A DNA stretch of 64,000 bases. It comes from an uncultured Acidobacteriota bacterium. GTDB taxonomy: Bacteria; Acidobacteriota; Vicinamibacteria; Vicinamibacterales; 2-12-FULL-66-21. The position numbers and the translations under genes were made by a program. The stretch lies in NCBI GenBank assembly GCA_963717745.1, contig CAVQXJ010000011.1:127942-191941 (forward strand). Reading direction: 5' to 3'. Shown here in pieces: positions 4,413 to 43,958 of the stretch (the stretch's first letter is position 1; the number at the start of each line of letters is the position of its first letter). The notes beneath the pieces were generated by a model. That model was not told the DNA's origin, did no database searches, and saw only the letters and a list, made by a program, of their open reading frames with translations.

Positions 4413-5989
4413 TGGATGCCGCCGCGGCCTGGACCGCGCTGCTCAGACCCGAGCGCGAGCTGACCCCGGAGTTCTGGGCGTCGTTCGCCGCGGCGATGCG
4501 TGAGCGGAAGCTGACCTTCGGCGATCGCGTCCATTGCTCGGTGCTGCGGCCGTTCTTCCTGACGGCCGCCGACGAGACCCGCATCCGAGCCGCGTCCGAA
4601 ACCATCGCCGCGATCGGCGAGCGGGTCGTCGCGGCGGCGATGGAGGACCGCCGGCTGCTGCGCGCGCTGGGAGTCACCGACGCCGAAGAGCGGCTGATCG
4701 GCCTCGATCCCGGCTATGCGCGGGCCAGCACCGCGTCGCGGCTCGACGCGTTCATCCTGCCGGATTCCCTGCACTTCGCCGAGTACAACGCCGAATCGCC
4801 GGCCGGTCCGGCCTATACCCAGCGGTTGTGCGAGCTGTTCGACGGCCTCGAGCCGATGGCCGCGCTGAAGCGCGAGGTGCACGTCACCCATCACCGACCG
4901 ATCCCGCCATTGCTGCAGGCGCTACTCGAGAGCTACCGCGAGTGGGGCGGTACCGCGTCGCCGCCGACGATGGCCATCGTCGACTTCCGCGGCGTGCCGA
5001 CGTGGGCCGAGTTCGAGCTGCTGAGAGACGCGTTCGTCGAGGCCGGCGTGCCCACCGTGGTCTGCGATCCGCGCGACCTCGTGTTCGACGGCGGCGTGCT
5101 GCGGGCCGACGGACGGGCGATCGATCTCGTCTACCGGCGGGTGCTCATCAACGACATCCTGGCCCGGCCGGACGACTGCGCAGCGCTGGTCGCCGCATAC
5201 GAAAAGCGCGCCGCCTGCGTGGCGAACACTTTCCGTTGCAAGCTTCCGCACAAGAAAGCGTTCTTCGCGGTGCTCACCGATCCGGTCCACGCCGCTCTGC
5301 TGTCTCCGGGCGAGCAGGCGATCGTGCGCGCCCACGTTCCGTGGACGCGGCTGGTGGCCGACGTCCGGACCGAGCGCGGCGGCGCCCAGGCGTCGCTGCT
5401 CGAGCTCGCGCGAACCGATCGCGAGCAGCTGGTGCTCAAGCCGAACGACGAGTTCGGCGGCACCGGCGTGATGCTCGGCTGGGAGGCGCCCGGGAGCGAA
5501 TGGGAAGCGGCCCTGCAGAAGGCCCTCGCGGATCCGCCGGGCACCTGGGTGCTCCAGGAACGGATCCCGGTGCGCCGCGAAGTGTTCCCCCACTTCGACG
5601 ACGCCGGGCGCGTGACGATGCGCGACATGCTGGTCGACCTCGCCCCTTACCTGTTCCGCGGCCGGCTGGGCGGGTATCTGACCCGCCTCAGCACCACCGG
5701 GCTGGCCAACGTCACTTCCGGCGGTGGGCAGGTGCCGGCGTTCGTGGTGGGGGCTGAGTCAAATCCCAAGCTCCAAATCCCAAATCCCAACCACTCCCAA
5801 CGCCCAACTCCCAACGTCCTAACTCCCAACGCCCAACGCCCAACGCCCAACGCCCAAACGCCCAACTCCCAACTCCTCTCGCCCAGCGCCTCGGAACTTG
5901 TCGTCGTTGGGAATTGGAGGTTGGGATTTCGAGTTGGGATTTGGAGCTTGGGAGTGGTTGGAGCTTGGAGCTTGGGATTTGGGATTTGA
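4412..5989 (+). CDS. Circularly permuted ATP-grasp protein (true end probably TGA 5755-5757; as given it reads through into a palindromic repeat)
   Basis: TGATG coupling at 4410-4414; [53 protein letters not shown] motifs. Confidence 0.8.
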
Positions 5990-5992
5990 CTC
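5756..5992. repeat. Heptamer-arm palindromic element, family A, copy 1
   Basis: GAGTCAAATCCCAAGCTCC...AACCACTCCCAA left arm; TTGGGAGTGGTTGG...GGGATTTGACTC right arm; 7-nt units TCCCAAA/CTCCCAA/CGCCCAA. Confidence 0.95.
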
Positions 5993-6005
5993 GTACAATC
6001 TGTAG

Positions 6006-7054
6006 ATGGTCTTTGGCCCTCCTCCGCAGGATTTGATGCCTGGCGCGCTGAACGCGGTCGGCATCTGTCTGGCCATCCAGCCGGGCGAGCGCGTGGCGCT
6101 GATCGCAGACGAGGCGAGTGGCGCGGTGGCGGCGAGTCTCGAGGCCGCGTTGACGCAGCACGAGGCGCGGACCGACGCGGTGCTCATCGAATCGGTCTCG
6201 TCGCGCCCGATGCTGAGCGCGCCGGCGCGGGTGCTCGAGGCGCTCGAGCAGGCGGATGCCGGCATTCTGTGCGTGCAGCCTCAGCAGGGGGAGCTTCCCG
6301 CGCGGATGGCGATCGTGGGGCTGGTGGAGCGGCGCCGCATCCGCTACGCGCACATGATCGGAGTCACGCCGCAGATCATGCGTGAAGGCCTGCGCGCGGA
6401 TTACCGGCTGGTCGATCGGCTCAGCCAGCAGTTGTGCGAACGGATGCGGACGGCGGTCACCCTCACCGTCAAGACCCCGGGCGGCACCGACTTCACGGCG
6501 ACCTTCAATCCGTCGCTGGCGTGGGTGAAGACCAGCGGGCTGATCAACCCGCGCTACTGGTCGAACCTGCCCGCCGGCGAGGTGTTCACCACGCCGGCCT
6601 CGGTGGACGGGACCTTCGTCTGCGACGGGACCGCCGGCGATTACTTCAACGGCAAATACGGCAGCCTCGAGGCCACGCCGCTGACCCTGGAAATCCGCGG
6701 CGGCCGGCTGGTCGACGCTCGCTGCGAGCGCCACGATCTGCAGCAGGACTTCTGGGAGTACTGCCACGCCGACGAGAACAGCAACCGCGTCGGCGAGCTC
6801 GCGTTCGGCACCAACTACGAGCTCCGCCGGATGATCGGCATCCTGCTCCAGGACGAGAAGTTTCCCGGGCGTGCACCTGGCCTTCGGTGATCCCTACGGC
6901 AGCCAGACCCACGCCGATTGGAAATCGAAGACCCACGTCGACGTGCTGACCCGCGACTGCAACGTGTGGATCGACGACGAACAGGTGATCGCCGACGGGG
7001 AGGTATCTGCTCGATCGCTTTGATCTGCGGGAGCCTTCGCTGACGCGGGTCTGA
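6006..7054 (+). CDS. Aminopeptidase, M29/AmpS-like (frameshifts near 6868 and 7000)
   Basis: [28 protein letters not shown] then shifted frame [26 protein letters not shown]. Confidence 0.8.
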
Positions 7055-7067
7055 GACGCGAGACCGT

Positions 7068-7344
7068 GGTCCGGTCCGCGGTCCGGGTCCGCGGTCCGGA
7101 AGTCAGGAATCAACCACGGTGGACTGGGCGTTGACCGATCGGTTCGACGGACTGGGCGCTTTCAGCGGCAACGGGCAACTCGATGGCCTGAGAGCTTTCA
7201 CAGGAGGGCCAGGAGATCAGGAAGAAAACATAAGTTCTTTCTCCTGAACTCCTGGCCCTCCTGTAAATGCTGGCGTCGCGAATGGCCCGGATCGCGTCTC
7301 CAAGCAGCAGGGGTGATTCGCCGGACTGCGGACCGCGGACCGCG
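7068..7344. repeat. Palindromic element with GGTCCGC heptamer arms, enclosing a family B palindrome
   Basis: Left GGTCCGCGGTCCGGAAGTCAGGAATCAACC vs right GGGTGATTCGCCGGACTGCGGACCGCGGACC (imperfect inverted repeat). Confidence 0.7.
7194..7267. repeat. Family B palindrome (CAGGAG about 9-nt units), empty copy
   Basis: GCTTTCACAGGAGGGCCAGGAGATCAGGA...TCCTGAACTCCTGGCCCTCCTGTAAA. Confidence 0.9.
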
Positions 7345-7353
7345 ACTGCGAAG

Positions 7354-8082
7354 TCACCACCACCCCACGTATTCCCTCAGCATCCGCTTCCAGTAGGGCC
7401 AGTCGTGCCCGCCCTCCGGCCCCCAATCGTCGACGTAGTGCCGGATCCCTTTGCGCGCGAGCACGCTCGAGAACGCGTAGGTGTGGCGGCTGTCTTCGAA
7501 TGGGCCGGAGCCGGTCACCAGCCGGATCTCGCAGCTCGCCAGCTGCTGCAGGTACCAGCCGTCGGTCATGTTGGCCATGTAGTCGACCGGGTTGTGGAAG
7601 TAGAAGTTGTCGTCGTAGAGCCCGTCCATGAACCGGCGCAGATCGTAGACGCCCGAGAAGCCATAGCAGCGCTTCACCAGGTGCGGATAGCGGAACAGCG
7701 TGTTGGCGGCGTGGTAGGCGCCAAGGGAGGCGCCGAACGTCGTGATCGGCACTCCCGGCGACTGGCAGTGCGTATGAACGAACGGCACGACCTCGTCGCG
7801 GATGTATTCGTCGAACATGCGCTGGCGCCAGCTGCGGTGGAACGGGTGCGCGGCCTTGTTGAGGAACGAGTCGTGGTTGTTCGAGCCGACGCAGAACACT
7901 TTGACGCGGCCGGCGTCGATGAAGTCGGCGATGGCGTCCAGCAGCCCCTGACGCTGCAGCTCCCATTCGTCGCCGTGACTGGTGGGAAAGGCCAGCATCG
8001 GCGGTCCCCAGTGGCCGAAGACCGCCACGCCCATGTCCCAGCCAAGCCGGGGTGAGTACCAGCGATGGTGCTCGATGTGCAT
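7354..8082 (-). CDS. Alpha/beta hydrolase, putative esterase
   Basis: FGHWGPPMLAFPT, GASLG nucleophile elbow, GHDWPYW catalytic His; ATG at 8082 after GATAAT. Confidence 0.85.
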   Translation of the reverse strand: MHIEHHRWYSPRLGWDMGVAVFGHWGPPMLAFPTSHGDEWELQRQGLLDAIADFIDAGRVKVFCVGSNNHDSFLNKAAHPFHRSWRQRMFDEYIRDEVVPFVHTHCQSPGVPITTFGASLGAYHAANTLFRYPHLVKRCYGFSGVYDLRRFMDGLYDDNFYFHNPVDYMANMTDGWYLQQLASCEIRLVTGSGPFEDSRHTYAFSSVLARKGIRHYVDDWGPEGGHDWPYWKRMLREYVGWW

Positions 8083-8098
8083 TGTGCGATTATCACTC

Positions 8099-9478
8099 GT
8101 GCTCCGGCTGCTCTTCGGCCCGCCTGAGTCGCCGATCGATCGGCGCACCTACCTGACCTACGGCGCGTCGCTGATGGCCCTGAAGTACGCCGTGGATGCC
8201 AGCGCGATCGCGATCTTCGCCGGCGTCTTCTGGACGCCCGCCGACTATCTGCTGCCGATGATCAGCTTCAACGCGGCGAAGATGGCGGAGTTCCCCGAGG
8301 CGCTGAACCTGTTTCTGCTGTTGTGGACGCTGCCGTTCCTCTGGATCGGCGTGGTCCTGAGCGCCCGCCGGGCGCTCGATGCCGACATCTTTCCCGGCGT
8401 CGTGGTGACCTTCTTCGTGCCGTTGCTGAACTACCTGTTGATGGCGCTGCTGGCGATCGCCCCGTCTCGTGCGCCACGCCCGCCCAAGGTGTTCGCCAGG
8501 CCGGAGCGGCCGCCCGAGCCCGGGCTCGCTCCCAGCGACAGCGGGCCGAGCACCACGTGGGGGATTCTCGCGGGTGCGGCGGCGGGCGTGTTCACCGTGG
8601 TCCTCGGCATCCTCGTCTTGAAGAGTTACGGCGCCGCGGTCTTTCTCGGCGCACCGTTCGTGGCCGGCATGATCAGCGCGCTGGTCGCCAACCGCATCGC
8701 GCCCCGCAGCCGCAGGCAGACGGTGTGGATTGGTCTGGCGGCGTTGGCGGCGATTGGCGGCGCCATCATCTTCTTTGCGATCGAAGGCGCCGTCTGCCTG
8801 GTGATGGCGTTCCCCGTCGCCGCGCCAATCGCGATCATGGGCTCGCTGACGGGACAGCTGCTCGCCCATCGGGAGCAGCCGCCGTCGCTGGGGCATCTCA
8901 CGCTGATCCTCATGGCGGTGCCGCTCGGCGCCGGAATCGAAGCCGCGATGCCAGCCAGCGCTGCTCGCATGGTGCTGACCTCGGTGGAGATCGACGCACC
9001 CGCGAGCACGGTCTGGCAGCATGTGGTGTCGTTCCGCGAGATTCAACGCCCGCCGGCGTGGTACTTCCGCTTCGGGCTGGCGTATCCGCTCCGCGCCCGC
9101 ATCGACGGCACCGGCGTCGGCGCGGTGCGCCACTGCGAGTTCACGACCGGCGCGTTCGTCGAGCCGATCACCGTCTGGGACGAGCCGAGGACGCTCGCCT
9201 TCGACGTGGTCCGTCAGCCGCCGCCGCTCCGGGAATGGAGCCCGTATTCCCGCGTCTATGCGCCGCATCTCGACGGGTTCTTCCGCACGTCGCGCGGCGA
9301 GTTCCGCTTGATCGCGCTGTCGCCGTCGCGGACGCGGCTCGAAGGACGCACCTGGTACTTCCTCGACATGCGGCCGTCGATCTACTGGAACGTGCTCGCC
9401 GACACCATCCTGCACGCCATTCATGAGCGCGTGCTGGAGCACGTCAAAGACGAGGCGGAGGCAGGAGGTAGGAGGTAG
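8099..9478 (+). CDS. Multi-pass membrane protein (DUF805-like N-terminus) with C-terminal SRPBCC/START domain; start uncertain
   Basis: Several TM segments, then TSVEIDAPASTVW, GVGAVRHCEFTTG, GEFRL, TRLEGRTWY, IHERVLEHVK. Confidence 0.75.
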   Translation: MLRLLFGPPESPIDRRTYLTYGASLMALKYAVDASAIAIFAGVFWTPADYLLPMISFNAAKMAEFPEALNLFLLLWTLPFLWIGVVLSARRALDADIFPGVVVTFFVPLLNYLLMALLAIAPSRAPRPPKVFARPERPPEPGLAPSDSGPSTTWGILAGAAAGVFTVVLGILVLKSYGAAVFLGAPFVAGMISALVANRIAPRSRRQTVWIGLAALAAIGGAIIFFAIEGAVCLVMAFPVAAPIAIMGSLTGQLLAHREQPPSLGHLTLILMAVPLGAGIEAAMPASAARMVLTSVEIDAPASTVWQHVVSFREIQRPPAWYFRFGLAYPLRARIDGTGVGAVRHCEFTTGAFVEPITVWDEPRTLAFDVVRQPPPLREWSPYSRVYAPHLDGFFRTSRGEFRLIALSPSRTRLEGRTWYFLDMRPSIYWNVLADTILHAIHERVLEHVKDEAEAGGRR

Positions 9479-9513
9479 GAGGTAGGAGACAGAAGACAGA
9501 AGACAGAAAACGG
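9461..9513. repeat. Heptamer tandem tract (TAGGAGG)x3 followed by (ACAGAAG)x3
   Basis: Read directly, between convergent genes. Confidence 0.85.
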
Positions 9514-9516
9514 CGT

Positions 9517-11212
9517 CTACCGCGCAAAAACTCTTCCGCGGCCCCACAGCGCTCGGCCCGGGCGCGCGTTCGTGTGCTCGCCGTTCCGCAGCACGACCAC
9601 GCCGTTCACCAGCACGTCCCGCACGCCGACCGAGTACTGGTGCGGCGATTCGAACGTGGCGCGGTCGGCCACGGTCGCCGGATCGAAGATGACGACGTCG
9701 GCGAATTTGCCGGGGGTGAGGAAGCCGCGCTGATCGAGCTCGAGGTTGGTCGCGGGCAGGCCGCTCATCCGGTGAATCGCGTCGGCGAGGGTCAGCACCT
9801 TGTCGTCGCGAACGTATTTCCCGAGCACTCGCGCGAAGTTGCCGTAGGCGCGGGGATGCGCCCCCGACTTCGTGAACGGCGGTTCGGGAGCCATCGAGGC
9901 GGCATCGGATCCGAACGACACCCACGGCAGACGAATCTGCATGGTCAGGTTGTCCTCGGACATCATCGAAGTACACCGTGCCGACCCGCGATCGATCCTC
10001 GACCACGAGGTTCATGATGGTCTCGACCGGGTCTTCGCCGCGCAGCCGGGCCGCCTCCGCGAGGGTCTTGCCGGTCAGCGGCTTCAGGGCGTCGGACTTG
10101 AACTCCACCAGCCGCACCCGGTCCGGTGACCCGGCCGCCAGGTAGAGGTTCTCCCACTCGCGGGACGGCGTGCGGATGGCGGCGGCGATCTTCTTGCGGA
10201 TCTGCGGATCGCGCAGCCGCTTGAACGCCTCCTCGTAACCACCGTCGAGGACCCATGGCGGCATCGAGGCATCGAGCCCGGTCGCGCCGGCCGTGTAGGT
10301 GTACATGTCGGCGGTGATGCGGAGCCCGTCCCGCCGCGCCTGCTCGATCATCGCGATCACCTGCGGCATCTTCGGCCAGTTCGCCTCGCCGGCCGCCTTG
10401 AGGTGATAGATCTCGGCGGGAATCCGCGCGTCCCGGCTGATGCGGATCAGCTCTTCGATCGCCTCGACCAGCCGGTTGCCTTCGCTGCGGACGTGCGAGA
10501 TGTACTTGCCGCGGTACTTCGCCGCGACCTTGCACAGCTCGATCAGCTCGTCGGTCGAGGCGTAGAACGCCGGCGCATAGATCAAGGACGACCCGATCCC
10601 GAGCGCCCCCGCCTCCATCTCTCGCCGCACGAGGTCACGCATCGCGTCGAGCTCCGCCGCGCTCGGCTTGCGATCCGCGAGACCGATGACGTGCTCGCGC
10701 ACCGTGGTCGCCCCGAGAAACGACGCGACGTTCTGCGACACGCCTCGCCGCTGCAGCTCCCCCAGATACTCGGCCAGCGTCGTCCAGGTGATGTCGAACT
10801 TGAGGTCGCCCATCTGCTCGACCATCCGCTTCTTCATCGCCTCGTTGAGCGGGCCCATCGAGCTGCCTTCGCCGAAGATCTGCGTGGTCACACCCTGACG
10901 GATCTCTCCCTGCGAGCGGCCGTCGACCAGCAGCGACTCGGTCGACCACGACAGCATGTTGATGAACCCGGGCGCGACCGTGAGACCGGTCGCATCGACG
11001 ACCGTTCCGGCTTTGGCCGCCGACAGGTCGCGCACCGCGGCGATGCGGTCGCCGCGGATCCCGACGTCGGCGCGCACCCCGGGACTGCCGCTGCCGTCGA
11101 AGACGGTGCCGCCGCGGATGATGGTGTCGAACGACTCCGGCTGCTGTGCCGTCGGCCCCGCCGCGACGGACAGTGCACCGACCGCAAGAATCACGCTGAG
11201 GATCAGACGCAT
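9517..11212 (-). CDS. N-acyl-D-amino-acid deacylase family amidohydrolase with signal peptide (frameshift near 9967)
   Basis: IRGGTVFDGSG, VAPGFINMLSW, YISHVRSEG, EIYHLKAAG, FGSDA, HPRAYGNFARVLG, ADVVIFDP. Confidence 0.85.
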
Positions 11213-11301
11213 GCCGAGATTATCGATCCGCGCGCCACGGGAGCCGCCATTTGGCAACGGTGACCTCTGGATCCCTGCACACGCGGGTTATTCGCGCGAC
11301 G

Positions 11302-11376
11302 GCTTCAACAGGAGGCCAGGAGTTCAGGAGACAGAATCATTTGGTTTCTCTCCTGATCTCCTGATCTCCTGTAAAG
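11302..11376. repeat. Family B palindrome, empty copy
   Basis: GCTTCAACAGGAGGCCAGGAGTTCAGGAGA...TCTCCTGATCTCCTGATCTCCTGTAAAG. Confidence 0.9.
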
Positions 11377-11443
11377 ACTGGCCATCGAATTAACCCAGCG
11401 GCCGCTGAAAGCATCGCGGTCCGCCGAGCAGCGGGCAGCTCGC

Positions 11444-11474
11444 TTGACGGCAGTCTTACAACATGTAAGACTGC
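11444..11474 (+). promoter_or_regulatory. Sigma70-like promoter with overlapping palindromic operator (putative PadR autoregulation)
   Basis: TTGACG at 11444; GCAGTCTTACA-ACA-TGTAAGACTGC perfect 11-bp arms at 11450-11474, 5 nt before the PadR ATG. Confidence 0.65.
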
Positions 11475-11479
11475 GCCGC

Positions 11480-11785
11480 ATGGCGGATCGATTGGCGTCG
11501 CTCTCGGACAAGGAACGGCTGATTCTCGAGCTGCTCGGGCGGGCGCGGCAGATGTACGGGCTGGAGCTGGTGACGGCTTCCGAGGGTGCGCTGAAGCGGG
11601 GCACTGTTTACGTCACGCTCGGGCGCATGGAGACGAAGGGGTACCTCGTGTCGCACCTGGAGGAGGAGCCGCCGTCGCAGGGCGGCATGCCTCGTCGCCT
11701 CTATGAGCCGACCGCCTATGGACGGGAGCTGCTGGCCGCCTGGACCTCGGCGCACCGGCGCCTCCGAATGAGGTTCGCGCAGTGA
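11480..11785 (+). CDS. PadR family transcriptional regulator
   Basis: MYGLEL, LKRGTVYVTLGRMETKGYL, PRRLYEPTAYGR winged HTH. Confidence 0.9.
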   Translation: MADRLASLSDKERLILELLGRARQMYGLELVTASEGALKRGTVYVTLGRMETKGYLVSHLEEEPPSQGGMPRRLYEPTAYGRELLAAWTSAHRRLRMRFAQ

Positions 11786-12714
11786 GGGCGCCGGGATACT
11801 GGCTGAGGGCCATCGCGACGCGGTTCTGCGGGCCGCAGACGATGGAGCGGCTGGTCGATCCGATCGTGGCCGATCTGCAGGCGGAGTACGCGGCGTTGGG
11901 TGACGGCGAACGCCTGGCGCCGGCGACGATTGCTGCTCTCGACGTATGTCGCGTTCTGGAAAGCGCTGAGCCTGCACGTCGTGCTGTCGGTCGGTCAGCC
12001 GCCGCCAGAGGGAGCCAGGCTCCGTCGCGCAATCGGCGTCTCCCTGGTCATGCTGGCGTTGTTCACCGCCGCGCTGACCATGCCGCCGTTGTTCAGCGGG
12101 CTCGGCTCGCAGGGTGGGCTGGGCGTTTCGGTCGATGCTGGTACTCCTGCTGATCCCCCAGGCGCTGCCCTTGAGTATTCCCGCCGCCATGTGCATCGGC
12201 ATTCTCTACGCGATGCGGGCCAGTCGGGTGACACGCCGCGATCTGTATGGCGTGGTGGCGATCGCTCTCGTCGCCAGCGCCGCCGTCTGGGCGGTGATCG
12301 AATGGGGCATGCCGCGGCGCGAACCAGGCGTTCCGGGAATTGGTCCACGCACAGCTCACCGGTCGCCGTGTCCACCTCGAGCCGGGCCTGAACGAGCTGG
12401 GGTTCACGGCGCTCGGCCAGCGGACCGATGCCGCCGCCATGCGGCTCTACCACCTGCGGTGGGCGCTGTCGTTCGCGCCGATCCCGTTGGGTGTCTTCGC
12501 GCTGTCAGTGGCCCACGCATCCGAGGCGCAATCGCCGCCGCCGCCCTCGCGGTGTACGGTGCCGTTCTTTTACTACAGCGCGTTGTGGGTGTCCGACTGG
12601 TACCTGACCCAGGGCGTCGCCCTCCCGATCCTGGCGGCGTGGGCGCCCAATGCCCTGTTCCTGGCCGCGGCGCTCGGGTTGATGCCGCGGTGGCGGAGAG
12701 AAGCGGCGATCTAG
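11782..12714 (+). CDS. PadR-associated membrane protein, multiply frameshifted
   Basis: GTGA coupling; N-terminal TMERLVDPIVADLQAEY; hydrophobic segments continue across at least 3 frames, ending LPILAAWAPNALF. Confidence 0.55.
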
Positions 12715-12772
12715 CTGGTTTCCACGGCTTTCACCCCACCAAAAATCGGCACATCGGGCAGGTTGCGAGGCT

Positions 12773-13374
12773 GCTTTAACAGGAGGTCAGGAGGACCGGA
12801 ATTCATTGTTCTCGGGGCACTGGCGACGGTCGGCTGTTTATAGAGGTCGGGATGCACCAGGTCTTCAGGCCAGCTCTCAGACTTCAGTGTTGAAGTTCAT
12901 GAGCAGGCCGACCGGAAAGCCCGTCAGCTTCAGATACGTGATCACCTGCGCCATGAAGACGGGATGCAGACGCTCCACGGCTTTGATCTCGACGATGAGC
13001 CGATGCTCGACGGCGAGATCCACCTTGAGAGAGCGCCAACCGTCTGATCTCGTACTGAATGGCTACTCGCGCTCTCGCTCAACAGCAGTCCCGCCGCTCG
13101 CAATTCAATCGTCATACAGTCCTGATAGATCGACTCGAGCAAGCCTGGCCCAAGCGCCCGGTGGACTTCGATGCCGCAGGCGATCACCCGTTCCTTCAGC
13201 GCTCCAGGTCGTCCGCCAGCACAACCCGCATGCCGCGACGAAAGAAGCAACTACGGCCACGCGAATTGCTTCGGAAACCGCGCGGGCCGGCCGGGCGACG
13301 GCATTTTGACCCAGGGCCGCCGCGTCCTCCGGGAGACAGAAGAACTTTCCGTCCTCCTGACCTCCTGTTAAAGC
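12773..13374. mobile_element. Family B palindromic element carrying a GxxExxY gene
   Basis: Perfect 24-bp terminal inverted repeats GCTTTAACAGGAGGTCAGGAGGAC (12773-12796) and GTCCTCCTGACCTCCTGTTAAAGC (13351-13374). Confidence 0.7.
12810..13231 (-). CDS. GxxExxY protein (PD-(D/E)XK-like nuclease fold), about 5-6 frameshifts; 3' end approximate
   Basis: Reconstructed across frames: ERVIACGIEVHRALGPGLLESIYQDCMTIEL...LKVDLAVEHRLIVEIKAVERLHPVFMAQVITYLKLTGFPVGLLMNFN. Confidence 0.85.
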
Positions 13375-13457
13375 TCACTGCCCTCGCTGAGAAGCTTGTG
13401 TGCCGCGATTGAGAGGTTAACCAGCGCCGCTAAGAGTGGGGTGACCGACGCGCGCAC

Positions 13458-14879
13458 TCATCTGACCCGGGGCAGGAACCCAGGCTTCTTGAGGAAGATT
13501 GGCGCGTTCGGCGGGGTTTCGGGCTTCACGTTGTAGCGCCAGGCCTCGATCAGCCAGAGGCCGCGTTGGCGCATCAGCACCAGCGTGCACAAGCCCTCGG
13601 CCGATGGCGCCGGTTCTCCCTTCGCGTCGGTCATGCCGCGGAGCTCCCATTTGGCGTCCGCGATCGCCACGTCGGGGGTGATGCAGCGAATGGTGCCGAA
13701 GGAGAGGTAGTGCCTCGAATGCCGGTACTCCGGCTGCCTGAAAAGGTAGGCGCGGTTTTCCCCGATGATCTTCGCGTTGCTCTCGACCAGGCCATCCGGG
13801 TGCGCCATGTCGCCCCCCGCGGACCAGAACGAGACGATGCGATCGACGTCCTGGTTGGCCCACGCGAGCTGGAACGCGGGGCCGAGCGCCCGGATGGTCC
13901 GATCGTCGCCGGGCTGGCACTCCCCGTTGGTGGGGCGCGAGGGGGACTGGGGCGGCCGGACGCTCGCCGGCGCCGGAGTTGCCGCAGGGGAACCGGCGAA
14001 CGGCAGCGACGCCTTTCGCAGACTCTCGATGTCCGTGCGGATCGCGCCCACCAGCCCTTCGACGACGACGCGCCCTTTGTCCCGGGTCGCGAGCGAGGGA
14101 TCGCCCCACGCGCCGGTCGGCGAATACGTTCCGCGTCCCCCCTCTCGTCGCGTCAATTGAAATGGCGTGCTCATCGCCGGGTTGTAATCTGGCTGCGCGC
14201 TCGGCATGTTCACGGCCGACGGGTCGATGTAGAGCATCATGGACGTTTCGATCTCGTCGGCGTGGTTGCCGCCCGGCTGCCGCTGCATGCCTCGCGTTTC
14301 GGCCAGGTGGGCGCGCCAGTCGGTGTAGTGCAGCAGGATCCCGTCCGACGCCAGCAGCTTCGCGGCGGCGGCCAGCGCCTGAGCGGAGGAAACGCCGGTG
14401 TTCAGCACGTAGAACCGTCGTGGCCCGCTGCGCGCGAGGCTGCGCACGACGTCCGCCGTCAGGTCGCGCGCGGTGGTCAACGACAGCGAGGTGGAGCCGG
14501 GGTACTCGGCGAATCCTGGAAAGTAGTGATACGGGAGCGGCGGTGCCGCGACGACGTCGGCGAGCTGGAGGAGGCGGCTGGTGAAGTAGTCGGCCAGCGT
14601 GCGATCGTTCCCGAGCTTGAGGTGCAGGCCGTGTTGCAGCGCGGCGGCGCCGAGGGGCAGGACCATCACGGTTTCCGGCGTGAGGCGCCGTTCGGCCACG
14701 GGCCACGTCAGCTCGGCCAGGCTGACGCCGGTGACCACCGGCTCTGCCGGCTTCGCCGGCGGCGCCACGGCCGGCGGCCGTGCCGGCGCCTGGCCGCTGA
14801 GGCCGGTGAGCGGACCGAGCAGAACCACGAAGAGAAACGAACGCCGAAACGTGGTGGCCAGGACTGAAGCGAGCCGCAT
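13458..14879 (-). CDS. Secreted creatininase-family protein fused to a C-terminal SnoaL/NTF2-like domain
   Basis: Signal peptide and Pro/Ala linker; LAELTWP, QHGLHLKLGND, GNHADEIETS, GAWGDPSLATRDKG; then AWANQDVDRIVSFW...ITPDVAIAD...WLIEAWR. Confidence 0.8.
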   Translation of the reverse strand: MRLASVLATTFRRSFLFVVLLGPLTGLSGQAPARPPAVAPPAKPAEPVVTGVSLAELTWPVAERRLTPETVMVLPLGAAALQHGLHLKLGNDRTLADYFTSRLLQLADVVAAPPLPYHYFPGFAEYPGSTSLSLTTARDLTADVVRSLARSGPRRFYVLNTGVSSAQALAAAAKLLASDGILLHYTDWRAHLAETRGMQRQPGGNHADEIETSMMLYIDPSAVNMPSAQPDYNPAMSTPFQLTRREGGRGTYSPTGAWGDPSLATRDKGRVVVEGLVGAIRTDIESLRKASLPFAGSPAATPAPASVRPPQSPSRPTNGECQPGDDRTIRALGPAFQLAWANQDVDRIVSFWSAGGDMAHPDGLVESNAKIIGENRAYLFRQPEYRHSRHYLSFGTIRCITPDVAIADAKWELRGMTDAKGEPAPSAEGLCTLVLMRQRGLWLIEAWRYNVKPETPPNAPIFLKKPGFLPRVR

Positions 14880-14936
14880 GTGTACCTCGCGGATTGGACG
14901 CTTGCCGGTGATCGTCGGCTTTACTCTAATGGGGAT

Positions 14937-14964
14937 CGCCGGGGTCTGAAGACCCCGGCGCTAC
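14937..14964 (-). repeat. GTAG-type REP-like hairpin
   Basis: Reverse strand GTAG-CGCCGGGGTC-TTCA-GACCCCGGCG. Confidence 0.75.
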
Positions 14965-15119: not shown

Positions 15120-15131
15120 GATGGAGAGATT

Positions 15132-18043: not shown

Positions 18044-18535
18044 GTGCGCGCTCGAACCCTGACCCGCCCGGCTTCCGACCGCTACCGTTTCCTCTGGGTT
18101 TCTCTGTTCTGGCTTACGGTCGGGCTCGTGACCATTTATGCCGCCGCCGGATGCCGCAGGGCGGTTCCGCCGCTCCACGCTCCAGGACCCGCCGGCGCGG
18201 CCGGGGCCACCATCAGCGGCACCATCCGCGGACCCGAACGGACGACGGCGATCGACGGACGAATCGTCGACGTGATCAACCTCACAACCAATCAGCGCCG
18301 GCGTGTCACCACCAACCAGGCCGGCGGCTTCTCGGTGACCCTCGATCCCGGCGACTATCGTGTCGAGCTCACGCTGCGCGAAGGCGAAGCCATCGTCCGC
18401 CAGCCCGGCGTGATCCACGTCGATCGCAGCGACGTCGACGCCGATGCGGATTTCGTGCTCGGCACCGGCCGGATCTCGCGTCCGCGTCGTCCGGCCTACA
18501 AGGTGGACGACGGGCTGGGCTCGCCGGTGGCTTAG
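18044..18535 (+). CDS. Carboxypeptidase regulatory-like domain exported protein; start uncertain
   Basis: TM/signal segment, then TISGTIRG...[22 protein letters not shown]. Confidence 0.65.
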
Positions 18536-18771
18536 TCAAATCCCAAGATCCAAGCTCCAAATCCCAACCACTCCCAAGCTCCAACTCCCAAATCTAATTC
18601 CCAACTCCCAAGTCCCAACTCCCAAATCCCAATCCCAAATCCCAAATCCCAAATCCCCATGTGTCGTAGCTGCTCGGCGATCTTGCGCTGGGATTTGGGA
18701 GTTGGGAATTAGATTTGGGAGTTGGGATTTGGGAGTGGTTGGGATTTGGGATTTGGAGCTTGGGATTTGTC
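18535..18771. repeat. Family A palindrome, copy 2
   Basis: GTCAAATCCCAAG...AACCACTCCCAA / TTGGGAGTGGTTGGG...GGGATTTGTC; overlaps the TAG stop. Confidence 0.95.
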
Positions 18772-22184: not shown

Positions 22185-22386
22185 CGTCAAATCCCAAGCT
22201 CCAAGCTCCAAATCCCAACCACTCCCAAGCTCCAAAATCCCAATTCGAAATCCCAAGTTCCAAATTCCAAATTCCCAAGCTCCAAATCCCACGTCCTGCA
22301 GCGACTCGGCGATCTTGAGCTGGGGATTTGGGACTTTGGGATTTGGGAGTGGTTGGGATTTGGAGCTTGGAGCTTGGGATTTGACG
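22185..22386. repeat. Family A palindrome, copy 3
   Basis: Perfect 44-bp arms CGTCAAATCCCAAGCTCCAAGCTCCAAATCCCAACCACTCCCAA; fills the gap between two convergent stop codons exactly. Confidence 0.95.
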
Positions 22387-30463: not shown

Positions 30464-30652
30464 ATCAAATCCCAAGCTCCAAATCCCAAATCCCAACCAC
30501 TCCCAAATCCCAACTTCCAAATCTCACCGTCAACTTCCAACCGCCAACTCCCGAGCGAAATCGAAACTCCTGTTTGGGATCTGGGGTTCGGGGTGTTGGG
30601 ATTTGGGAGTTGGGAGTGGTTGGGATTTGGAGCTTGGGATTTGGGAGTTGAT
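30464..30652. repeat. Family A palindrome, copy 4
   Basis: ATCAAATCCCAAGCTCC...AACCACTCCCAA / TTGGGAGTGGTTGGG...GAGTTGAT, immediately after TAG. Confidence 0.95.
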
Positions 30653-30665
30653 AAGATTCACTCCT

Positions 30666-34527: not shown

Positions 34528-35859
34528 GTGAAGAGATTCGCCCTGGCGTTGGTGAGTGCCGTCGCGTCTGTCGCCGTCACGCAGGCGCAGTGGCCGCAGT
34601 GGCGTGGACCCGACCGCACCGGCCTCGTGCCTGCCGCTGCGGTGCCGGCGGCGTGGCCCGACAAGCCGACCGTGAAGTGGACGCAGCCGGTCGGCGAAGG
34701 CTATTCGTCGCCGGTCGTCGCCGACCAGCGGGTGTTCGTGCACAGCCGCACCGATCCGGACGAGGTCGTCAGCGCGTTCGAGCTCGACTCCGGCGAACCG
34801 ATCTGGTCGGCCACCTACGGGTCGTCGTTCACCAAGAACAAGTACGCCGCCGCGATGGCGAAGGGGCCGTTCTCGACCCCGCTGGTGGCGAACGGCCGCC
34901 TGTTCACACTCGGGACCAGCGCCGTGCTGTCGTCGTTCGATGCCGCGACCGGCGCCGTGAAGTGGCGCAAGGACTGGTCGAAGGAGATCGACACGTCCGG
35001 GCTGTTCACCGGCACCGCGATGTCGCCGATCATCGACAGCGGCCTGCTCATCGTGCACGTCGGCGATGATGGTGCCGGCGCGATGCGCGCGCTCGATCCG
35101 GCGACCGGCGACGAGAAGTGGACGCTCCCTGGACATGGACCAGGCTACGCCTCACCGATCGTGACGACGTTTGGCGGCGTCCGCCAGCTGGTGACGATGA
35201 CCGACAAGGCGGTGGTGGGGATCGAGGTGCAGTCCGGCAAGGCGCTTTGGACGATTCCGTTCCCTGACCTGTGGAACGAAAACATCGTCACCCCGGTGGT
35301 GGCCGGCGACATCCTGATCGTGTCCGGCGCGCGCAAGGGGACCTATGGCTATCGACTGGAAAAGACCGGCGCCGGGTTCGCGGCGGCCGAGGTCTGGCAC
35401 AACACCGATCTGCCCATGCATATGAGCTCTCCGGTCGTCGACGGCACGGTCGTCTACGGCTTCGGCAGCAGGCGCAAAGGCCAGTTGTTCTGCCTCGACG
35501 CGAGGACCGGGGTCGCGAAATGGACGACCGAGGGACGGGGTGGCACGAACGCATCGATCCAGATGGCGGGTCCAAACCTCGTGGTGCTGACCACTGACGG
35601 CGAGCTGCTGGTGGTGCGGCGGTCGCCGGACAAATACGAGGAGCTGAAGCGCTACAAAGTGGCGGAGTCGGAGACCTGGGCGCAGCCGGTGCTGGTGCCG
35701 GGAGGAATGCTGATCCGGGATGCGGGGGGGATCGCGTTGTGGTCTCTGTCAAATCCCAAATCCCAAGCTCCAAATCCCAACCACGCCCAAATCCCAAGCT
35801 CCAAGGAATCCCAAATCCCGAATCCCAAATTCCATTCCCAAATCCCAACGCCCCATTGA
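34528..35859 (+). CDS. PQQ-like (BamB-type) beta-propeller protein; last about 36 aa derive from a palindrome
   Basis: Signal peptide, WPQWRGP, GYSSPVV, ALD..TG..KW repeats, TWAQPV; tail [12 protein letters not shown] is translated repeat. Confidence 0.85.
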   Translation: MKRFALALVSAVASVAVTQAQWPQWRGPDRTGLVPAAAVPAAWPDKPTVKWTQPVGEGYSSPVVADQRVFVHSRTDPDEVVSAFELDSGEPIWSATYGSSFTKNKYAAAMAKGPFSTPLVANGRLFTLGTSAVLSSFDAATGAVKWRKDWSKEIDTSGLFTGTAMSPIIDSGLLIVHVGDDGAGAMRALDPATGDEKWTLPGHGPGYASPIVTTFGGVRQLVTMTDKAVVGIEVQSGKALWTIPFPDLWNENIVTPVVAGDILIVSGARKGTYGYRLEKTGAGFAAAEVWHNTDLPMHMSSPVVDGTVVYGFGSRRKGQLFCLDARTGVAKWTTEGRGGTNASIQMAGPNLVVLTTDGELLVVRRSPDKYEELKRYKVAESETWAQPVLVPGGMLIRDAGGIALWSLSNPKSQAPNPNHAQIPSSKESQIPNPKFHSQIPTPH

Positions 35860-35935
35860 GCCCGGTTTGGAGGGTGATTGGGATTTGGGCGTTGGGAGTG
35901 GTTGGGATTTGGAGCTTGGGATTTGGGATTTGACA
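35747..35935. repeat. Family A palindrome, copy 5
   Basis: Perfect arms of about 38 bp, TGTCAAATCCCAAATCCCAAGCTCCAAATCCCAACCAC. Confidence 0.95.
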
Positions 35936-35951
35936 CCAGGTACACTGAGCC

Positions 35952-37427
35952 ATGCTCCACCTTCCAATTCTCCGTCAGGGCATTCCCTACAAGAGCCTGG
36001 ATATCGTGAGAGTGCCGCACTATCAGACGCGGGAGCCATTCGTCGAAATCAGTCAGGCGAACGCCGGGCTGATCCGGCGCGATCTGCGGCCGGAGCGGCA
36101 GGCGGCGGCGCGCCAGGCGCTGGCGCGGCTGCCGTTCGCGCGGCTGATCGCGATGTGCAGCGAGGCGGCGGATCACTTCCTGAACGACAGCCTGCCGCTC
36201 GGCGACGGCGAACAGTCGCCGGTCGACTACGTGCTGCAGCTGTCGGCGACGACCGGGATGCCGCACGCGCTGGTCCGGCGCAACATGCAGCGGGTCGCCG
36301 GCGTGATGCGGCAGATGAACACGGTGCTGGGCGGCCTGACCCGCGGGCTGGATCTCTCCGTTCTCGACACCGGCCACGGCGAGCACGATGGCCACGTCCT
36401 GAGCTTCTATCCGCGGACCGACGCAATGGGCGTGGTGCTGCCGAGCAATTCGCCGGGCGTGCACTCGCTCTGGGTGCCGGCGATCGCCTTGAAGATTCCG
36501 CTGGTCCTGAAGCCGGGCAGCGCCGAGCCGTGGACGCCATTCCGGATTGCGCAGGCATTCATGAAGGCCGGATGCCCGCCGGAGGCGTTCAGCTATTACC
36601 CCGCGGACCATGCCGGCGCCGGTGAGATTCTGCGCAGGACGGGCCGGAGCATGTTCTTCGGCGACGTCTCGGCGGTGGGCGGGTGGGAAGGGGACCCGCG
36701 GGTCGAGCTGCACGGACCCGGCTACAGCAAGATCCTGATTGGCGACGATCTGCTCGAAGGCGACGCCTGGAGGCAGCATCTCGATCTGATCGCGGGATCA
36801 ATCGCCGACAACGGCGGCCGGTCGTGCGTCAATGCCTCCGGAGTCTGGGTGGCCGCCTCGCATGCCGCACGGGTGGCCGATGCCATTGCGGCGAAGCTGG
36901 CGGCGATCGTCCCGCGTGCCGCCGACGACGAGGCGGCGACACTGGCGCCGTTCGCGGATCCCAAGGTCGCCGAGCGGATCTCCGGGCAGATCGACGCCGG
37001 GCTGTCGACCCCAGGGGCGCGCGAGGTCACGCTCGATCATCGACCCACCCCGCGGCTCGCCACGCTCGCTGGCAGCACCTATCTGCAGCCGACGCTGGTG
37101 CTGTGCGACTCGCCCGAGCATCCGCTGGCCAACCGTGAGTTCCTGTTCCCATTTGCGGCGGTGGTGGCGGTCAGCCCCGACGAGATGGCGCGGGTGCCGG
37201 CCGCGATGGGCAAGACGCTGGTCGTGACCGTGCTCTCCCGCGACCGCGGGCTGGTGAACCGCCTGCTCGGCTCGTCGCTGGTCGATCGCTTGAACGTCGG
37301 CGCGATCCAGACCAACCAGATCAGCTGGGATCAGCCGCACGAGGGCAACCTGTTCGAGCACCTATACGCCCGGCGATCGTTCCAGCAACACGCGGACGAG
37401 GCGCTCGCCGCGGCCGCCGACGCGTGA
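35952..37427 (+). CDS. Aldehyde dehydrogenase superfamily protein (acyl reductase-like)
   Basis: GVVLPSNSP, LVLKPG, HGPGYSK, GRSCVNAS (catalytic Cys), EFLFPF. Confidence 0.8.
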   Translation: MLHLPILRQGIPYKSLDIVRVPHYQTREPFVEISQANAGLIRRDLRPERQAAARQALARLPFARLIAMCSEAADHFLNDSLPLGDGEQSPVDYVLQLSATTGMPHALVRRNMQRVAGVMRQMNTVLGGLTRGLDLSVLDTGHGEHDGHVLSFYPRTDAMGVVLPSNSPGVHSLWVPAIALKIPLVLKPGSAEPWTPFRIAQAFMKAGCPPEAFSYYPADHAGAGEILRRTGRSMFFGDVSAVGGWEGDPRVELHGPGYSKILIGDDLLEGDAWRQHLDLIAGSIADNGGRSCVNASGVWVAASHAARVADAIAAKLAAIVPRAADDEAATLAPFADPKVAERISGQIDAGLSTPGAREVTLDHRPTPRLATLAGSTYLQPTLVLCDSPEHPLANREFLFPFAAVVAVSPDEMARVPAAMGKTLVVTVLSRDRGLVNRLLGSSLVDRLNVGAIQTNQISWDQPHEGNLFEHLYARRSFQQHADEALAAAADA

Positions 37428-38813: not shown

Positions 38814-39489
38814 ATGCTGACCGTCGATCGAGTCACGAAGCGCTATCGCACTCCCCGGGGGGAGCTCTCCATCCTGACCGACATCTCGCTGTCGCTCGAG
38901 CGCGGCGCCGCGATCGCGATCATGGGACCCTCCGGCAGCGGCAAGAGCACGCTGCTCTATATCCTGGGCGCGCTCGAGGCACCGTCGTCTGGCACGGTCA
39001 CCCTTGACGGCAAGGACCCGTACCGGATGGGCGAGCGGGAACAGGCGGCGTTTCGCAACCAGCAGATCGGGTTCGTCTTCCAGGATCACTCGCTGCTGCC
39101 GCAATGCTCGGTGCTCGAAAACGTGCTCGCGCCGACGTTCGTGGCGCCGCCGGCCGACGCCGGACCGCGCCGCCGCCACCCGGGCGCAGGCGCTGCTGAC
39201 CCAGGTCGGACTCGCCGACCGGCTCGCCCATCGTCCCGCCGAGCTGTCGGGCGGCGAAAAACAACGGGCCGCGCTCGCGCGCGCGCTCATTCGCAATCCG
39301 ACACTGCTGCTCTGCGACGAACCGACCGGCAACCTCGATCGTGCCGCGGCCGACACGGTGGCCGATCTGCTGCTCGAGCTGCATGCGGCCCGCAACACGA
39401 TCCTGGTGGTGGTGACCCATAGCGCGCCGCTGGCCGCCCGTTTTCCGGTGCGTTATGAGATGAGCGGCGGGAGTCTGGTGAAGGCGTAG
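38814..39489 (+). CDS. ABC transporter ATP-binding protein, LolD/MacB-type (frameshift near 39165)
   Basis: GPSGSGKST, GFVFQ, LSGGEKQR, DEPTGNLD, VTH. Confidence 0.92.
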
Positions 39490-39707
39490 TCAAATCCCAA
39501 GCTCCAAGCTCCAAATCCCAACCACTCCCAAATCCCAAATCCCAAATAACTCCCAAATGCCAACGCCCAATTGATCTCGAGTGCAGGGTTTTGGAAGATG
39601 GGTCGGATTTGGCGGTTGGGAGTGATTGGGATTTGGGGTTGGGAGTCGATTTGGGAGTTGGGAGTTGGGAGTGGTTGGGATTTGGAGCTTGGGATTTGGG
39701 ATTTGAC
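39489..39707. repeat. Family A palindrome, copy 6, inside the ABC operon
   Basis: GTCAAATCCCAAGCTCC... / ...GGGATTTGAC; overlaps TAG and ends 2 nt before the next ATG. Confidence 0.95.
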
Positions 39708-42700: not shown

Positions 42701-43104
42701 ACGCGTTTCACCGGGTGGAGAACACCTACCTCTCGACGTTCCAGGCGCTGGGCGGGCTCGGGCTGCTGCTCGGCACGATCGGGCTTGCCACGGTGATGTT
42801 CCGGAACGTGCTCGAGCGCCGGCGCGAACTGGCGCTGCTGCGCGCCGTCGGCTACGACGCGCGGCACATCACCGTGATGATCGGGGCCGAGACGCTGTTC
42901 CTGCTGCTGTCGGGGCTCGCCGCCGGTGCCGGCTGCGCGATCGTCGCGGTGGCGCCGGCCTGGCTGGCGCGCGGCGGCAGCGGGCCGGGCGTAGGATTGC
43001 TGGTCTTGCTCGGCGCCATCGCCGCGGCCGGGATCCTGTCCGCCGCCGTCGCCACGCGCGCGGCGGTGACTGGGCCGCTGCTGGAGGCGCTGCGGGCAGA
43101 GTAG
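39710..43104 (+). CDS. Large duplicated FtsX/LolE-like ABC permease (frameshifts near 39716 and 41178)
   Basis: YHWRTNLAVGLGV..GALLVGDSVRGSL; EQRLRQIGVLRATG; ERRRELALLRAVG; LEALRAE. Confidence 0.85.
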
Positions 43105-43190
43105 GATCCACCTTCAAGACGTTGGAGGTAGTGGGAGGTGCCGGATCCCCGCCTTCGAGACGTTGGAGGTGGTGGGAGGTACCGGATCTC
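43104..43190. repeat. Tandem direct repeat of about 40 bp, two copies
   Basis: GGATCC..CCTTC(A/G)AGACGTTGGAGGT(A/G)GTGGGAGGT(G/A)CC twice, running into the family C arm. Confidence 0.8.
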
Positions 43191-43297
43191 AAAAACGGAG
43201 CAACGGAGAGAACGAAGTAAAACGGAGAAGACTATTTCAGGCAAACCCTAATTGTCTTTTTCGTTATTCTCCGTTGCTCCGTTTTTGAGATCCGGTA
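43180..43297. repeat. Family C palindrome (AACGGAGC units), copy 1
   Basis: Perfect 30-bp arms TACCGGATCTCAAAAACGGAGCAACGGAGA. Confidence 0.92.
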
Positions 43298-43336
43298 GCT
43301 CCAACGACCTCGGCTGCTTCTAATAAGGACGACGAG

Positions 43337-43789
43337 ATGAAAACAATGTTGACAGCACGGGACATCAAGGTGGCGCTGGCGGCCGCGGTAATCACGCTCA
43401 CCGGCGCCGGGATGATGCGGGCACAGACTCCGGTGATGGGCTCACGCATCTTCGAATGGGACGCGCTGAAGGTCGAGAAAACGAAGGTCGGCGCCCGGCG
43501 CGACGTCGTCCGGCTGCCGACCGCCACGCTCGACGAGCTCGAGATGCACATCACCACGCTCGATGCCGGCCAGACCTCGCATGCGCCCCATCAGCATCCG
43601 GCCGAGGAGCTGATCATCATCAAGGAGGGCACGCTCGAGTCGTTCGTGAACGGCGAGTACAAGCGCGTCGGTCCAGGCTCGATCGTCTTCCAGGCGTCCA
43701 ATCAGCCGCACGCGATCCGGAACGTCGGTACCACGCCGGCGACCTATCACGTGGTGCAGTGGCAATCGCCAGGCATGCTCAAGAAATGA
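43337..43789 (+). CDS. Secreted cupin domain protein
   Basis: Signal peptide; HAPHQHPAEELIIIKEG...GPGS...PHAIRN; SD AAGGA. Confidence 0.88.
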   Translation: MKTMLTARDIKVALAAAVITLTGAGMMRAQTPVMGSRIFEWDALKVEKTKVGARRDVVRLPTATLDELEMHITTLDAGQTSHAPHQHPAEELIIIKEGTLESFVNGEYKRVGPGSIVFQASNQPHAIRNVGTTPATYHVVQWQSPGMLKK

Positions 43790-43958
43790 AAATCCCAAGA
43801 TCCAAATCCCAAGCTCCAACCACTCCCAAAGTCCAACGCCCAAGGGTGAAATCCCAAATCCCAAATTCCCAATCCCGCGTGAATGCCACTGTTGGCGGAG
43901 GGTTTGGGATTTGGAAGTTGGGAGTGGTTGGAGCTTGGGATTTGGATCTTGGGATTTT
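43789..43958. repeat. Family A palindrome, copy 7
   Basis: Perfect arms of about 41 bp, AAAATCCCAAGATCCAAATCCCAAGCTCCAACCACTCCCAA. Confidence 0.95.

Follow-up and report, generated by a model that had tools for sequence, protein, structure and literature searches.

Seven long palindromes with arms of 7-nt repeats lie in a 64,000-nucleotide stretch of DNA from an uncultured Acidobacteriota bacterium (the window, positions 127942-191941 of contig C11 of genome G000), and they belong to a single repeat family, here called family A, of which this genome holds about 177 paired copies. We consider it probable that family A is the gene-less, non-autonomous form of a cassette in which inverted heptamer arrays enclose a gene for a four-helix-bundle protein, resembling the intervening sequences (IVSs) of 23S rRNA, and that it serves as an RNA hairpin, either at a gene's 3' end or between two genes. 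G000 is a metagenome-assembled genome (MAG) of 7.97 Mb in 33 contigs, with 67% G+C, a completeness of 88.7% and a rated contamination of 4.4%. An earlier note, made from the letters of the window alone, had listed the seven copies as a spreading element that docks on stop codons; all seven are present, with refined limits.

Each window copy is an imperfect palindrome in which a C/A-rich left arm is matched by a right arm that is its G/T-rich complement, and the termini read GTCAAATCCC...GGGATTTGAC. The window contains 15 occurrences of the core AACCACTCCCAA, counting those with at most one mismatch, where shuffles predict 0.07. These seven copies, and no others in the window, are recovered by a profile of the 43-nt terminus, which was also run over the whole of G000 to give the genome-wide count that the earlier note had called for and finds 372 arms there, i.e. 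177 pairs and 18 lone arms. A second census with a cluster heuristic gives 169 paired elements and, as lone arms, 13 that are C-rich and 10 that are G-rich, and the exact core is found 151 times in forward and 144 times in reverse orientation, spread over 27 of the 33 contigs. The terminus is made up of GTC, four 7-nt units and AACCACTCCCAA. Conservation in 277 arms is at least 0.99 at each of its positions, save the first two bases and those that distinguish two alternative units, a (AAATCCC, 633 times) and b (AAGCTCC, 403 times); AAGATCC is seen 26 times and any other unit at most 5 times. The strings of a and b units often differ between the two arms of one copy. Further inside, additional heptamers of greater variety (such as AACTCCC and AACGCCC) surround a loop that most copies share with no other, and the elements measure 113-276 nt (median 184, n = 167).

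The loops of 169 elements are mostly unique, with one group of six and a few pairs. The group of six is spread over five contigs at unrelated loci, and its members have the whole left interior and the loop in common; most differences between them are 7-nt steps of the right arm and changes between a and b units in the termini. These six loci with the same interior and loop, together with 177 pairs that have common, non-repetitive termini, support the view of family A as a discrete element copied as a unit. Copies also cluster locally, as 44 of 140 gaps are shorter than 6 kb (31%, against 11.8% expected). The absence of a clear target duplication, reported in the earlier note, was upheld for k = 2-8 at four offsets (0-3), with counts close to those of shuffled pairs, for instance 2 cases against 0.85 expected at k = 4 and offset 2. 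A TA target was rejected, with only about 27% of ends having T at position -4 and A at -3. The loop motif that the earlier note had seen in copies 2 and 3, 3.6 kb from each other, is the 13-nt CTCGGCGATCTTG; it is restricted to these two among family A members, and 2 of its 8 occurrences in G000 fall inside elements.

The earlier note had suggested a search for copies whose loop holds an open reading frame (ORF), and one such copy was found. At C13:872436-873130 family A arms enclose an ORF of 124 codons (C13:872625-872996) whose product matches PF05635 with 36.6 bits (cut-off 33.8), TIGR02436 'four helix bundle protein' with 55.9 bits (cut-off 24) and PDB entry 2rld, which has five chains, with E = 5e-9. 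This gene is the only long cargo between family A arms in the 88.7% of the genome that the assembly represents. All nine PF05635 loci in G000 are bracketed by inverted heptamer arrays, and the unit differs from locus to locus. In the congener G001 a homologous gene stands in A-type arms at another locus (contig C37), and the orthologous site in G000, C32:46881-47098, is occupied by a family A copy without the gene. The flanks, a downstream hairpin among them, are the same in both genomes, and the upstream stop codon is formed in G000 inside a mutated terminus, GTTAAAT. At the site of the gene-bearing copy of G000, no such gene is present in G001. A search for remnants of the four-helix-bundle gene in the 169 loops returned residual heptamer matches only. 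Family A therefore shows the three features by which we delimit the class: a long hairpin of inverted arrays of ~7-nt units, a PF05635/TIGR02436 gene in the same arms, and an interchange of gene-bearing and gene-less forms at one orthologous site.

The association of arms and protein was followed in 30 homologous loci from 201 genomes of the order, a set that includes the query locus itself, with its CCCAA-type arrays. Arrays of this type occur at 3 of the 5 close homologues (54-67% identity; L158, L159 and L160) and at none of the 24 distant ones (32-42%), which indicates that arm type follows protein clade. Such a pattern would fit recognition of the arms by the protein, and would equally fit co-inheritance of the two; it speaks against the arms of the C13 copy being there by chance.

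The placement of family A is sharply defined. Five copies had been described as beginning within 1 nt of a stop codon, and in copies 2, 3, 4, 6 and 7 the stop is indeed 0-1 nt from the element end or overlaps it. The bias holds genome-wide: 132 of the 197 element sides that face a gene 3' end lie at -3 to +10 nt from the stop codon. The contexts of 166 placed elements are tandem in 111 cases, convergent in 43 and divergent in 12, against 112, 27 and 27 expected (p = 1.6e-4). Tandem copies lie at a median of 4 nt from the upstream stop and 39 nt from the downstream start, the stop being the closer of the two for 85 of 111 elements (p = 1.7e-8), and in convergent pairs the two element ends usually touch the two stops. 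The docked stops are TAG in 65 cases, TGA in 59 and TAA in 25, against 1731, 3728 and 706 in the genome, an enrichment of TAG and TAA (p = 1.8e-6). The stop is repeatedly built in part of the terminal bases of the element, as in TA/GTCAAAT (14 times), T/GACAAAT (5 times) and TA/ATCAAAT (3 times), where the slash marks the junction. The downstream gene often begins 0-12 nt past the element.

On the RNA level, the predicted fold of 166 elements has a mean of about -112 kcal/mol on either strand; for copy 2 it is -143.3 kcal/mol, with a shuffle mean of -69.9 and a z score of -16.0. Of the 111 tandem copies, 78 have the better fold in sense and 32 in antisense (Wilcoxon p = 2.9e-6), G-U pairs numbering 648 in sense and 354 in antisense, and no strand bias is seen in convergent contexts (23 versus 20). 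Within the six-copy subfamily five members have one orientation to transcription, and the sense strand folds better in these five, so at least part of the bias would be set at insertion or establishment. The sense-strand advantage in the predicted folds fits an mRNA hairpin. A hairpin acting in termination, processing or stability had been proposed in the earlier note, and the stability of the sense strand speaks for the hairpin, while classical termination is unsupported. No U-run follows the stem in copies 1-7, which end in ...GGGATTTGAC followed by unrelated sequence, and a terminator scan of positions 5000-24000 found none at copies 1-3; an intrinsic (Rho-independent) terminator was rejected on these grounds. 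Rfam gave no match in the window at gathering score, and sub-threshold matches were to miRNA-precursor hairpin models only.

Comparison with relatives indicates where family A has multiplied. An exact 21-mer of unit plus core occurs 272 times in G000 (137+135), 5 times in G001 (4+1) and not at all in 39 other relatives, and these counts show an expansion of family A in one lineage. Among the public-genome matches to the 21-mer that were listed are Vicinamibacterales/Acidobacteriota MAGs, one Chloroflexia-labelled contig (L057) and two chance partial matches (L063 and L065). The copy at ~2500-2810 of L057, a contig with 66.5% G+C and a Chloroflexia MAG label, is a full one with exact termini, and reflects either mis-binning or transfer.

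Sixteen of the ~177 G000 sites were compared with their counterparts in congeners, namely the 7 window copies and 9 on C4 and C10. Thirteen of these are comparable in G001, where 3 hold an A-type element, 5 a sister family, A2, which has AACTCCC arms around a ~90-nt inner palindrome, and 1 a lone A2 arm. The remainder hold an unrelated heptamer hairpin (1), a complex insert (1) or nothing (2, at C10:12206 and C10:16401). G004 has A2 at the sites of copy 1, copy 4 and C4:84190 and is empty at the copy 3 site, where the converging stops read TGACTCA. In G005 and G006 the examined sites are mostly empty or occupied by other arrays. The cleanest empty site is C4:84190, which is filled in G000, G001 and G004 and reads TAG-4 nt-ATG in G005 and TAG-7 nt-ATG in G006. 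The comparison of empty and filled orthologous sites that the earlier note had proposed thus reveals presence/absence differences among congeners.

Matches to the A2 inner module number 83 in G001, 17 in G004, 4 in G006 and 5 in G000, so that A and A2 have reciprocal abundances. Several junctions carry family A in G000 where A2 stands in relatives. If G001 is nearest and G004 lies outside the pair, an order of relatedness taken from identity levels alone, A would have replaced A2 in place, at different times. Many sites are old and have been re-occupied by a different family, and new insertions are only part of the story. The idea of a spreading non-autonomous element stands in so far as family A is copied, expanded in one lineage and variably present among congeners, and it falls short where an old site has merely changed its occupant. 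The malQ junction, that of copy 4, was compared in different soil bacteria. From 80 metagenome loci fetched, 76 were analysed (L072, L075 and L131 were dropped as their match falls short of the gene end, L084 for having little sequence past the match), of which 8 were too short and 68 usable. Tandem heptamer arrays begin within 52 nt of the stop in 10 of these 68, with 8 different units, which suggests that the site just after the stop has been colonised repeatedly by the whole class. Many of the other loci are empty; there a TGATAAGAT-like box overlaps the stop.

Several observations concern A2 and its neighbours. Its ~90-nt inner module (TTCGAACAAYGGGGTGAAAG...loop...complement; e.g. L026:3159-3314) is found in G001, G004 and G000 and has no Rfam match. 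In G000 it lies at C31:107850, C13:1115434, C25:87436, C31:194348 and C13:971940, in arms of the AGGAGGT/ACAGAAA family in 4 of the 5 cases, and its presence inside the arms of another family indicates that arms and cargo are modular. A third repeat, with GGCGAG(A/G)CCTCGCCAGAGC in it, is nested in the left arm of A2 in G001 (copy 6 site) and in G004 (C4:84190 site). At the copy 1 site of G005 (C2, ~2540727-2542048, in L032) there is a 1.3-kb tandem pile-up of AACGCCC-type hairpins with repeated loop segments.

Few or no insertions would be needed if the hairpins were old structures kept by the host at fixed gene ends and homogenised in place by gene conversion, i.e. by concerted evolution. 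Such a process would account for the junctions that carry A in G000 and A2 in G001 and/or G004 (copies 1, 2, 3, 4 and 6 and C4:84190), for termini that are nearly invariant around mostly unrelated interiors and loops, for variation that comes in blocks of a or b units at a length fixed at four units, and for the different unit strings often found in the two arms of one copy. We nevertheless regard it as unlikely, given the clean empty sites in G004, G005 and G006 and the elementless C10:12206 and C10:16401 in G001, the six unrelated loci with the same whole interior and loop, and the contrast between 177 copies in G000 and a handful with the core in G001; the 8 array units at the malQ junction argue for repeated colonisation. 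It is harder still to see family A as a set of immobile heptamer repeats that arose by slippage and template switching and are kept for a DNA or RNA G-quadruplex (G4) or i-motif, like the GGGAATC repeats of Xanthomonas. The 7-nt units, their varying number between copies and a canonical G3-N(1-7) x4 motif in the G-rich arm of 89 of 167 elements are in line with that account, as is the precedent of heptamers near stop codons that, in the passages compared, occur as 70-75 convergent pairs per Xanthomonas genome and form G4 in vitro (Rehm et al. 2015, PMC4692102). Against it stand the non-repetitive GTC end and AACCACTCCCAA core common to ~370 arms, and one loop at six loci. The motif is lacking in 78 of the 167 elements, and where it is present G4 would need to compete with the partner arm in a very stable predicted hairpin (mean -112 kcal/mol). 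We judge this explanation improbable.

Movement by a transposase encoded elsewhere, either as repetitive extragenic palindromic (REP) sequences or bacterial interspersed mosaic elements (BIMEs) served by a REP-associated tyrosine transposase (RAYT; Y1, IS200-like) or as MITEs (miniature inverted-repeat transposable elements) served by a DDE enzyme, seems to us very improbable. Family A has the palindromic form, the position at gene 3' ends and the lack of target duplication that RAYT-borne repeats would have, and two Y1_Tnp (PF01797) proteins are encoded in G000, but each of the two genes is over 43 kb away from the nearest copy of family A and has different flanking repeats of its own; neither is flanked by family A, which is moreover about five times as long as a REP. 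The missing duplication speaks against DDE-type MITEs: 43-nt terminal inverted repeats are present, yet no duplication and no transposase parent were found in G000, which is 88.7% complete, and the only cargo found between family A arms is the four-helix-bundle gene. The two Y1_Tnp genes (C13:815683-816547 and C13:1017961-1018357) carry short inverted repeats of GGGGTCAGATCTCGA type and GGTGTCAGGCACCAAATCGTG type, respectively, which are probably separate REP-like families. Two further candidates were set aside. Integron attC sites, considered without a search for an integrase, have cores like the family A ends in composition, but in the wrong order, and the copies are scattered over 27 of 33 contigs with no single array; a 23S rRNA IVS in the strict sense, inserted in helix 25 or 45 of a 23S rRNA gene, is precluded by flanks that are protein-coding genes and by a window in which Rfam finds no rRNA.

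A number of points weigh against the reading of family A as a gene-less, IVS-like cassette that is copied to gene ends and acts in RNA. G000 is an incomplete MAG with apparent homopolymer frameshifts, and its gene ends come from a purpose-made codon-usage gene caller, which is crude (6165 genes); 24 of the 197 ORFs seem to extend more than 50 nt into the element. There is a single gene-bearing A copy in G000, so the linkage may be plain co-inheritance, and four-helix-bundle proteins are not known to move DNA. A transposon family would not usually combine nearly invariant termini with unrelated interiors, and the presence of a heptamer element or fragments at 11 of the 13 comparable G001 sites fits in-place conversion as well as insertion; something like conversion may accompany insertion or take its place. 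Docking may reflect filtering by selection in a compact genome and not targeting. The strand bias is absent from the terminal a/b slots (b/a 40 versus a/b 33, p = 0.48) and could stem from oriented insertion or mutational skew, and the transcription and processing of family A are putative.

Heptamer repeats are over-represented in bacterial intergenic DNA in general. The nearest published repeats are the G4-forming heptamers GGGAATC of Xanthomonas and GGGGA(C/T)T of Nostoc, described in the passages compared as intergenic, rare between divergent genes, mostly at most 50 bp from stop codons and for the most part transcribed (Rehm et al. 2015, PMC4692102). As in family A, these are G-rich 7-nt units near stops that avoid divergent spacers and occur in inverted pairs. 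They are treated there as simple repeats, whereas family A has a fixed terminus of GTC, 4 units and AACCACTCCCAA and behaves as a copied unit; defined termini, a common core, a gene-bearing form and site turnover go unmentioned in those passages.

The nearest architecture is that of the ORF-bearing 23S IVS. In the Coxiella burnetii element, as given in the passages compared, a terminal inverted-repeat stem of 28 bp encloses an S23p/PF05635 ORF, tandem heptamers of variable number adjoin the ORF, and RNase III cuts the stem (Warrier et al. 2016, PMC4990558); Leptospira, as cited in the literature, has an ORF-bearing 23S IVS too. Common to these elements and family A is a long inverted-repeat stem around a small ORF of the four-helix-bundle family, and a mobile origin has long been suspected for IVSs. 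Family A differs in that it lies between protein genes and not in rRNA helices, that the gene is missing from nearly all copies, that the arms are heptamer arrays of 40-110 nt in place of the 28-bp stem of Coxiella, and that there are ~177 copies per genome.

REP/BIME repeats, the enterobacterial repetitive intergenic consensus (ERIC) or intergenic repeat unit (IRU), and Correia elements occur as imperfect palindromes, dispersed between cistrons or at gene 3' ends, which are co-transcribed, affect mRNA stability or processing, and are non-autonomous. REPs are short and tied to RAYT genes, and ERIC and Correia elements duplicate TA; family A is longer, not tied to RAYT genes and free of target duplication. 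We know of none among them that is built of heptamer arrays or linked to a four-helix-bundle gene. In full texts, searched without supplements, we found no report that links PF05635 genes outside rRNA to heptamer-armed hairpins at the ends of genes. For a role in RNA, REP-like stabilisers would offer a familiar precedent, and the IVS stem cut by RNase III, by analogy, the closest one.

Taken together, these comparisons allow a course of events to be proposed for the gene-less, IVS-like cassette. Family A would be the amplified gene-less form of an element whose gene-bearing form carries a PF05635/TIGR02436 gene in its loop and is built like the ORF-bearing 23S rRNA IVS. Whole elements would be copied to new sites without target duplication and would be retained in the few bases that separate a stop codon from the start, promoter or converging stop that follows, often supplying part of the stop codon from their own terminal bases. 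Presumably transcribed with the upstream gene, the element would form, as RNA, an imperfect hairpin of ~80 bp with a mean of -112 kcal/mol, most likely a processing or stability element situated between two genes or at a gene 3' end. The analogy of IVS stems suggests that it may be an RNase III-type substrate or an exonuclease block and not a classical terminator. Over time, sites would be re-occupied by other versions of the heptamer-hairpin class.

The seven window copies illustrate these placements. Copy 1 (5758..5990) lies between an ATP-grasp-like and an M29-peptidase-like gene, in tandem on the + strand, and has an interior rich in AACGCCC units. As assembled, its upstream ORF passes through the whole element to the terminal TGA. 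Orthologues in G001, G004 and G005 end exactly at the junction (VVGQ*, VVG* and VVD*), and a TGA at 5755-5757 stands one base out of frame behind a G5 run, which points to an assembly indel; copy 1 is thus probably docked, as the earlier note had supposed. The first G of copy 2 (18535..18771) completes the TAG of a CarboxypepD_reg-domain gene, and a small ORF and then a sodium:solute symporter gene follow. Copy 3 (22186..22385) takes up all the space from the stop of an amidohydrolase gene (+) to that of a converging gene (-) for a 168-aa protein; it has a frame problem like that of copy 1, and the orthologue ends ITRGK*, matching the TAG frame. Copy 4 (30465..30651) follows directly on the TAG of malQ (4-alpha-glucanotransferase), and its right end abuts a conserved GTTGATAAGAT box before the next gene. 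Copy 5 (35748..35934) is truly undocked: the BamB-like ORF before it lacks a stop at the junction and continues for 37 codons in the left arm, to 35859, and an aldehyde-dehydrogenase-like gene begins 18 nt past the right end. Copy 6 (39489..39707) supplies with its first G the TAG of an ABC ATPase gene and is followed by a MacB-like permease gene. The left terminus of copy 7 (~43788..43961) is remodelled (TGAAAATCCC) and holds the TGA of a cupin gene; on its right are a 16-bp perfect palindrome and a converging gene. This palindrome (GGTGCTGTATTTCAAGCC / GGCTTGAAATACAGCACC), at 43962-44002 directly after copy 7 and between the converging genes, has a right half conserved in G001 and is possibly the original bidirectional terminator.

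The ABC ATPase gene before copy 6 is in two frames, with positions 1-80 of the ABC_tran profile at 38814-39422 and 79-136 at 39004-39489. This split gene (38814-39489) and the frame problems before copies 1 and 3, at G5 runs, suggest homopolymer indels of the assembly rather than pseudogenes. A possible further irregularity is found at the start of contig C3 (C3:5793-6873), where an AT-rich stretch with a low-G+C four-helix-bundle gene in AATGTGC-type arms adjoins a biotin-carboxylase-like gene; it looks foreign to a genome of 67% G+C and may be a chimeric join or contamination.

The earlier note had placed the ends of four copies just before the next -10 box. Genome-wide, a TANNNT starting within 20 nt past the element is found on 30 of 111 downstream sides and on 9 of 86 control sides, an excess that agrees with this, but a consensus scan yields 1 site against 1.1 expected. 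That site, TTGGGA-16-TACAAT at 5972-5999, is promoter-like and straddles the right end of copy 1; as a general rule, the G-rich arm as a promoter source is unsupported. The -10-like hexamers TACAAT, GATAAT, GATAAG and TACACT stand only 5-10 nt before the ATG of the genes downstream of copies 1, 2, 4 and 5, and these four genes have no visible Shine-Dalgarno sequence (5990-6010, 18771-18800, 30651-30675 and 35934-35955), which points to mRNAs with no leader or a very short one. Congeners retain the box regardless of the element that precedes it.

Family A is surrounded by many other heptamer arrays. G000 contains 303 near-perfect period-7 arrays of at least 4 units, 275 of them outside predicted genes, with dozens of unit types, among them AATCCCT (26), ACCACGG (24), AACTCCC (22) and ACGGACT (19). 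Some unit types have a four-helix-bundle copy; for ACCACGG, ACGGACT and ACCTCCT none was found.

For the annotation of such genomes, family A elements on stop codons can lengthen or shorten ORFs, as at copy 5. With one gene-bearing and ~177 gene-less copies, sharp ends and measurable rules of placement, G000 offers a tractable case in which it can be asked whether these hairpins are processed in mRNA like IVS stems, whether the protein binds or moves the arms, and how one family overwrites another at the same junction. The PF05635 '23S IVS protein' family is large, and to our knowledge no role has been assigned to it outside diversity-generating retroelements, to which Avd links it. We put forward as a tentative, and still rather doubtful, proposal that the heptamer-armed hairpins are a new class of mobile element, with the four-helix-bundle (Avd/IVS-family) protein as a trans-acting partner that recognises the arms of its own lineage. 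If this is true, family A would be the largest known non-autonomous amplification of the class, and insertion would occur without duplication, with resident hairpins or the first bases that follow a stop codon as its target. Docking, the bias in orientation and the overwriting of one family by another in place would then all be explained, and the classic 23S rRNA intervening sequences would be one special case.

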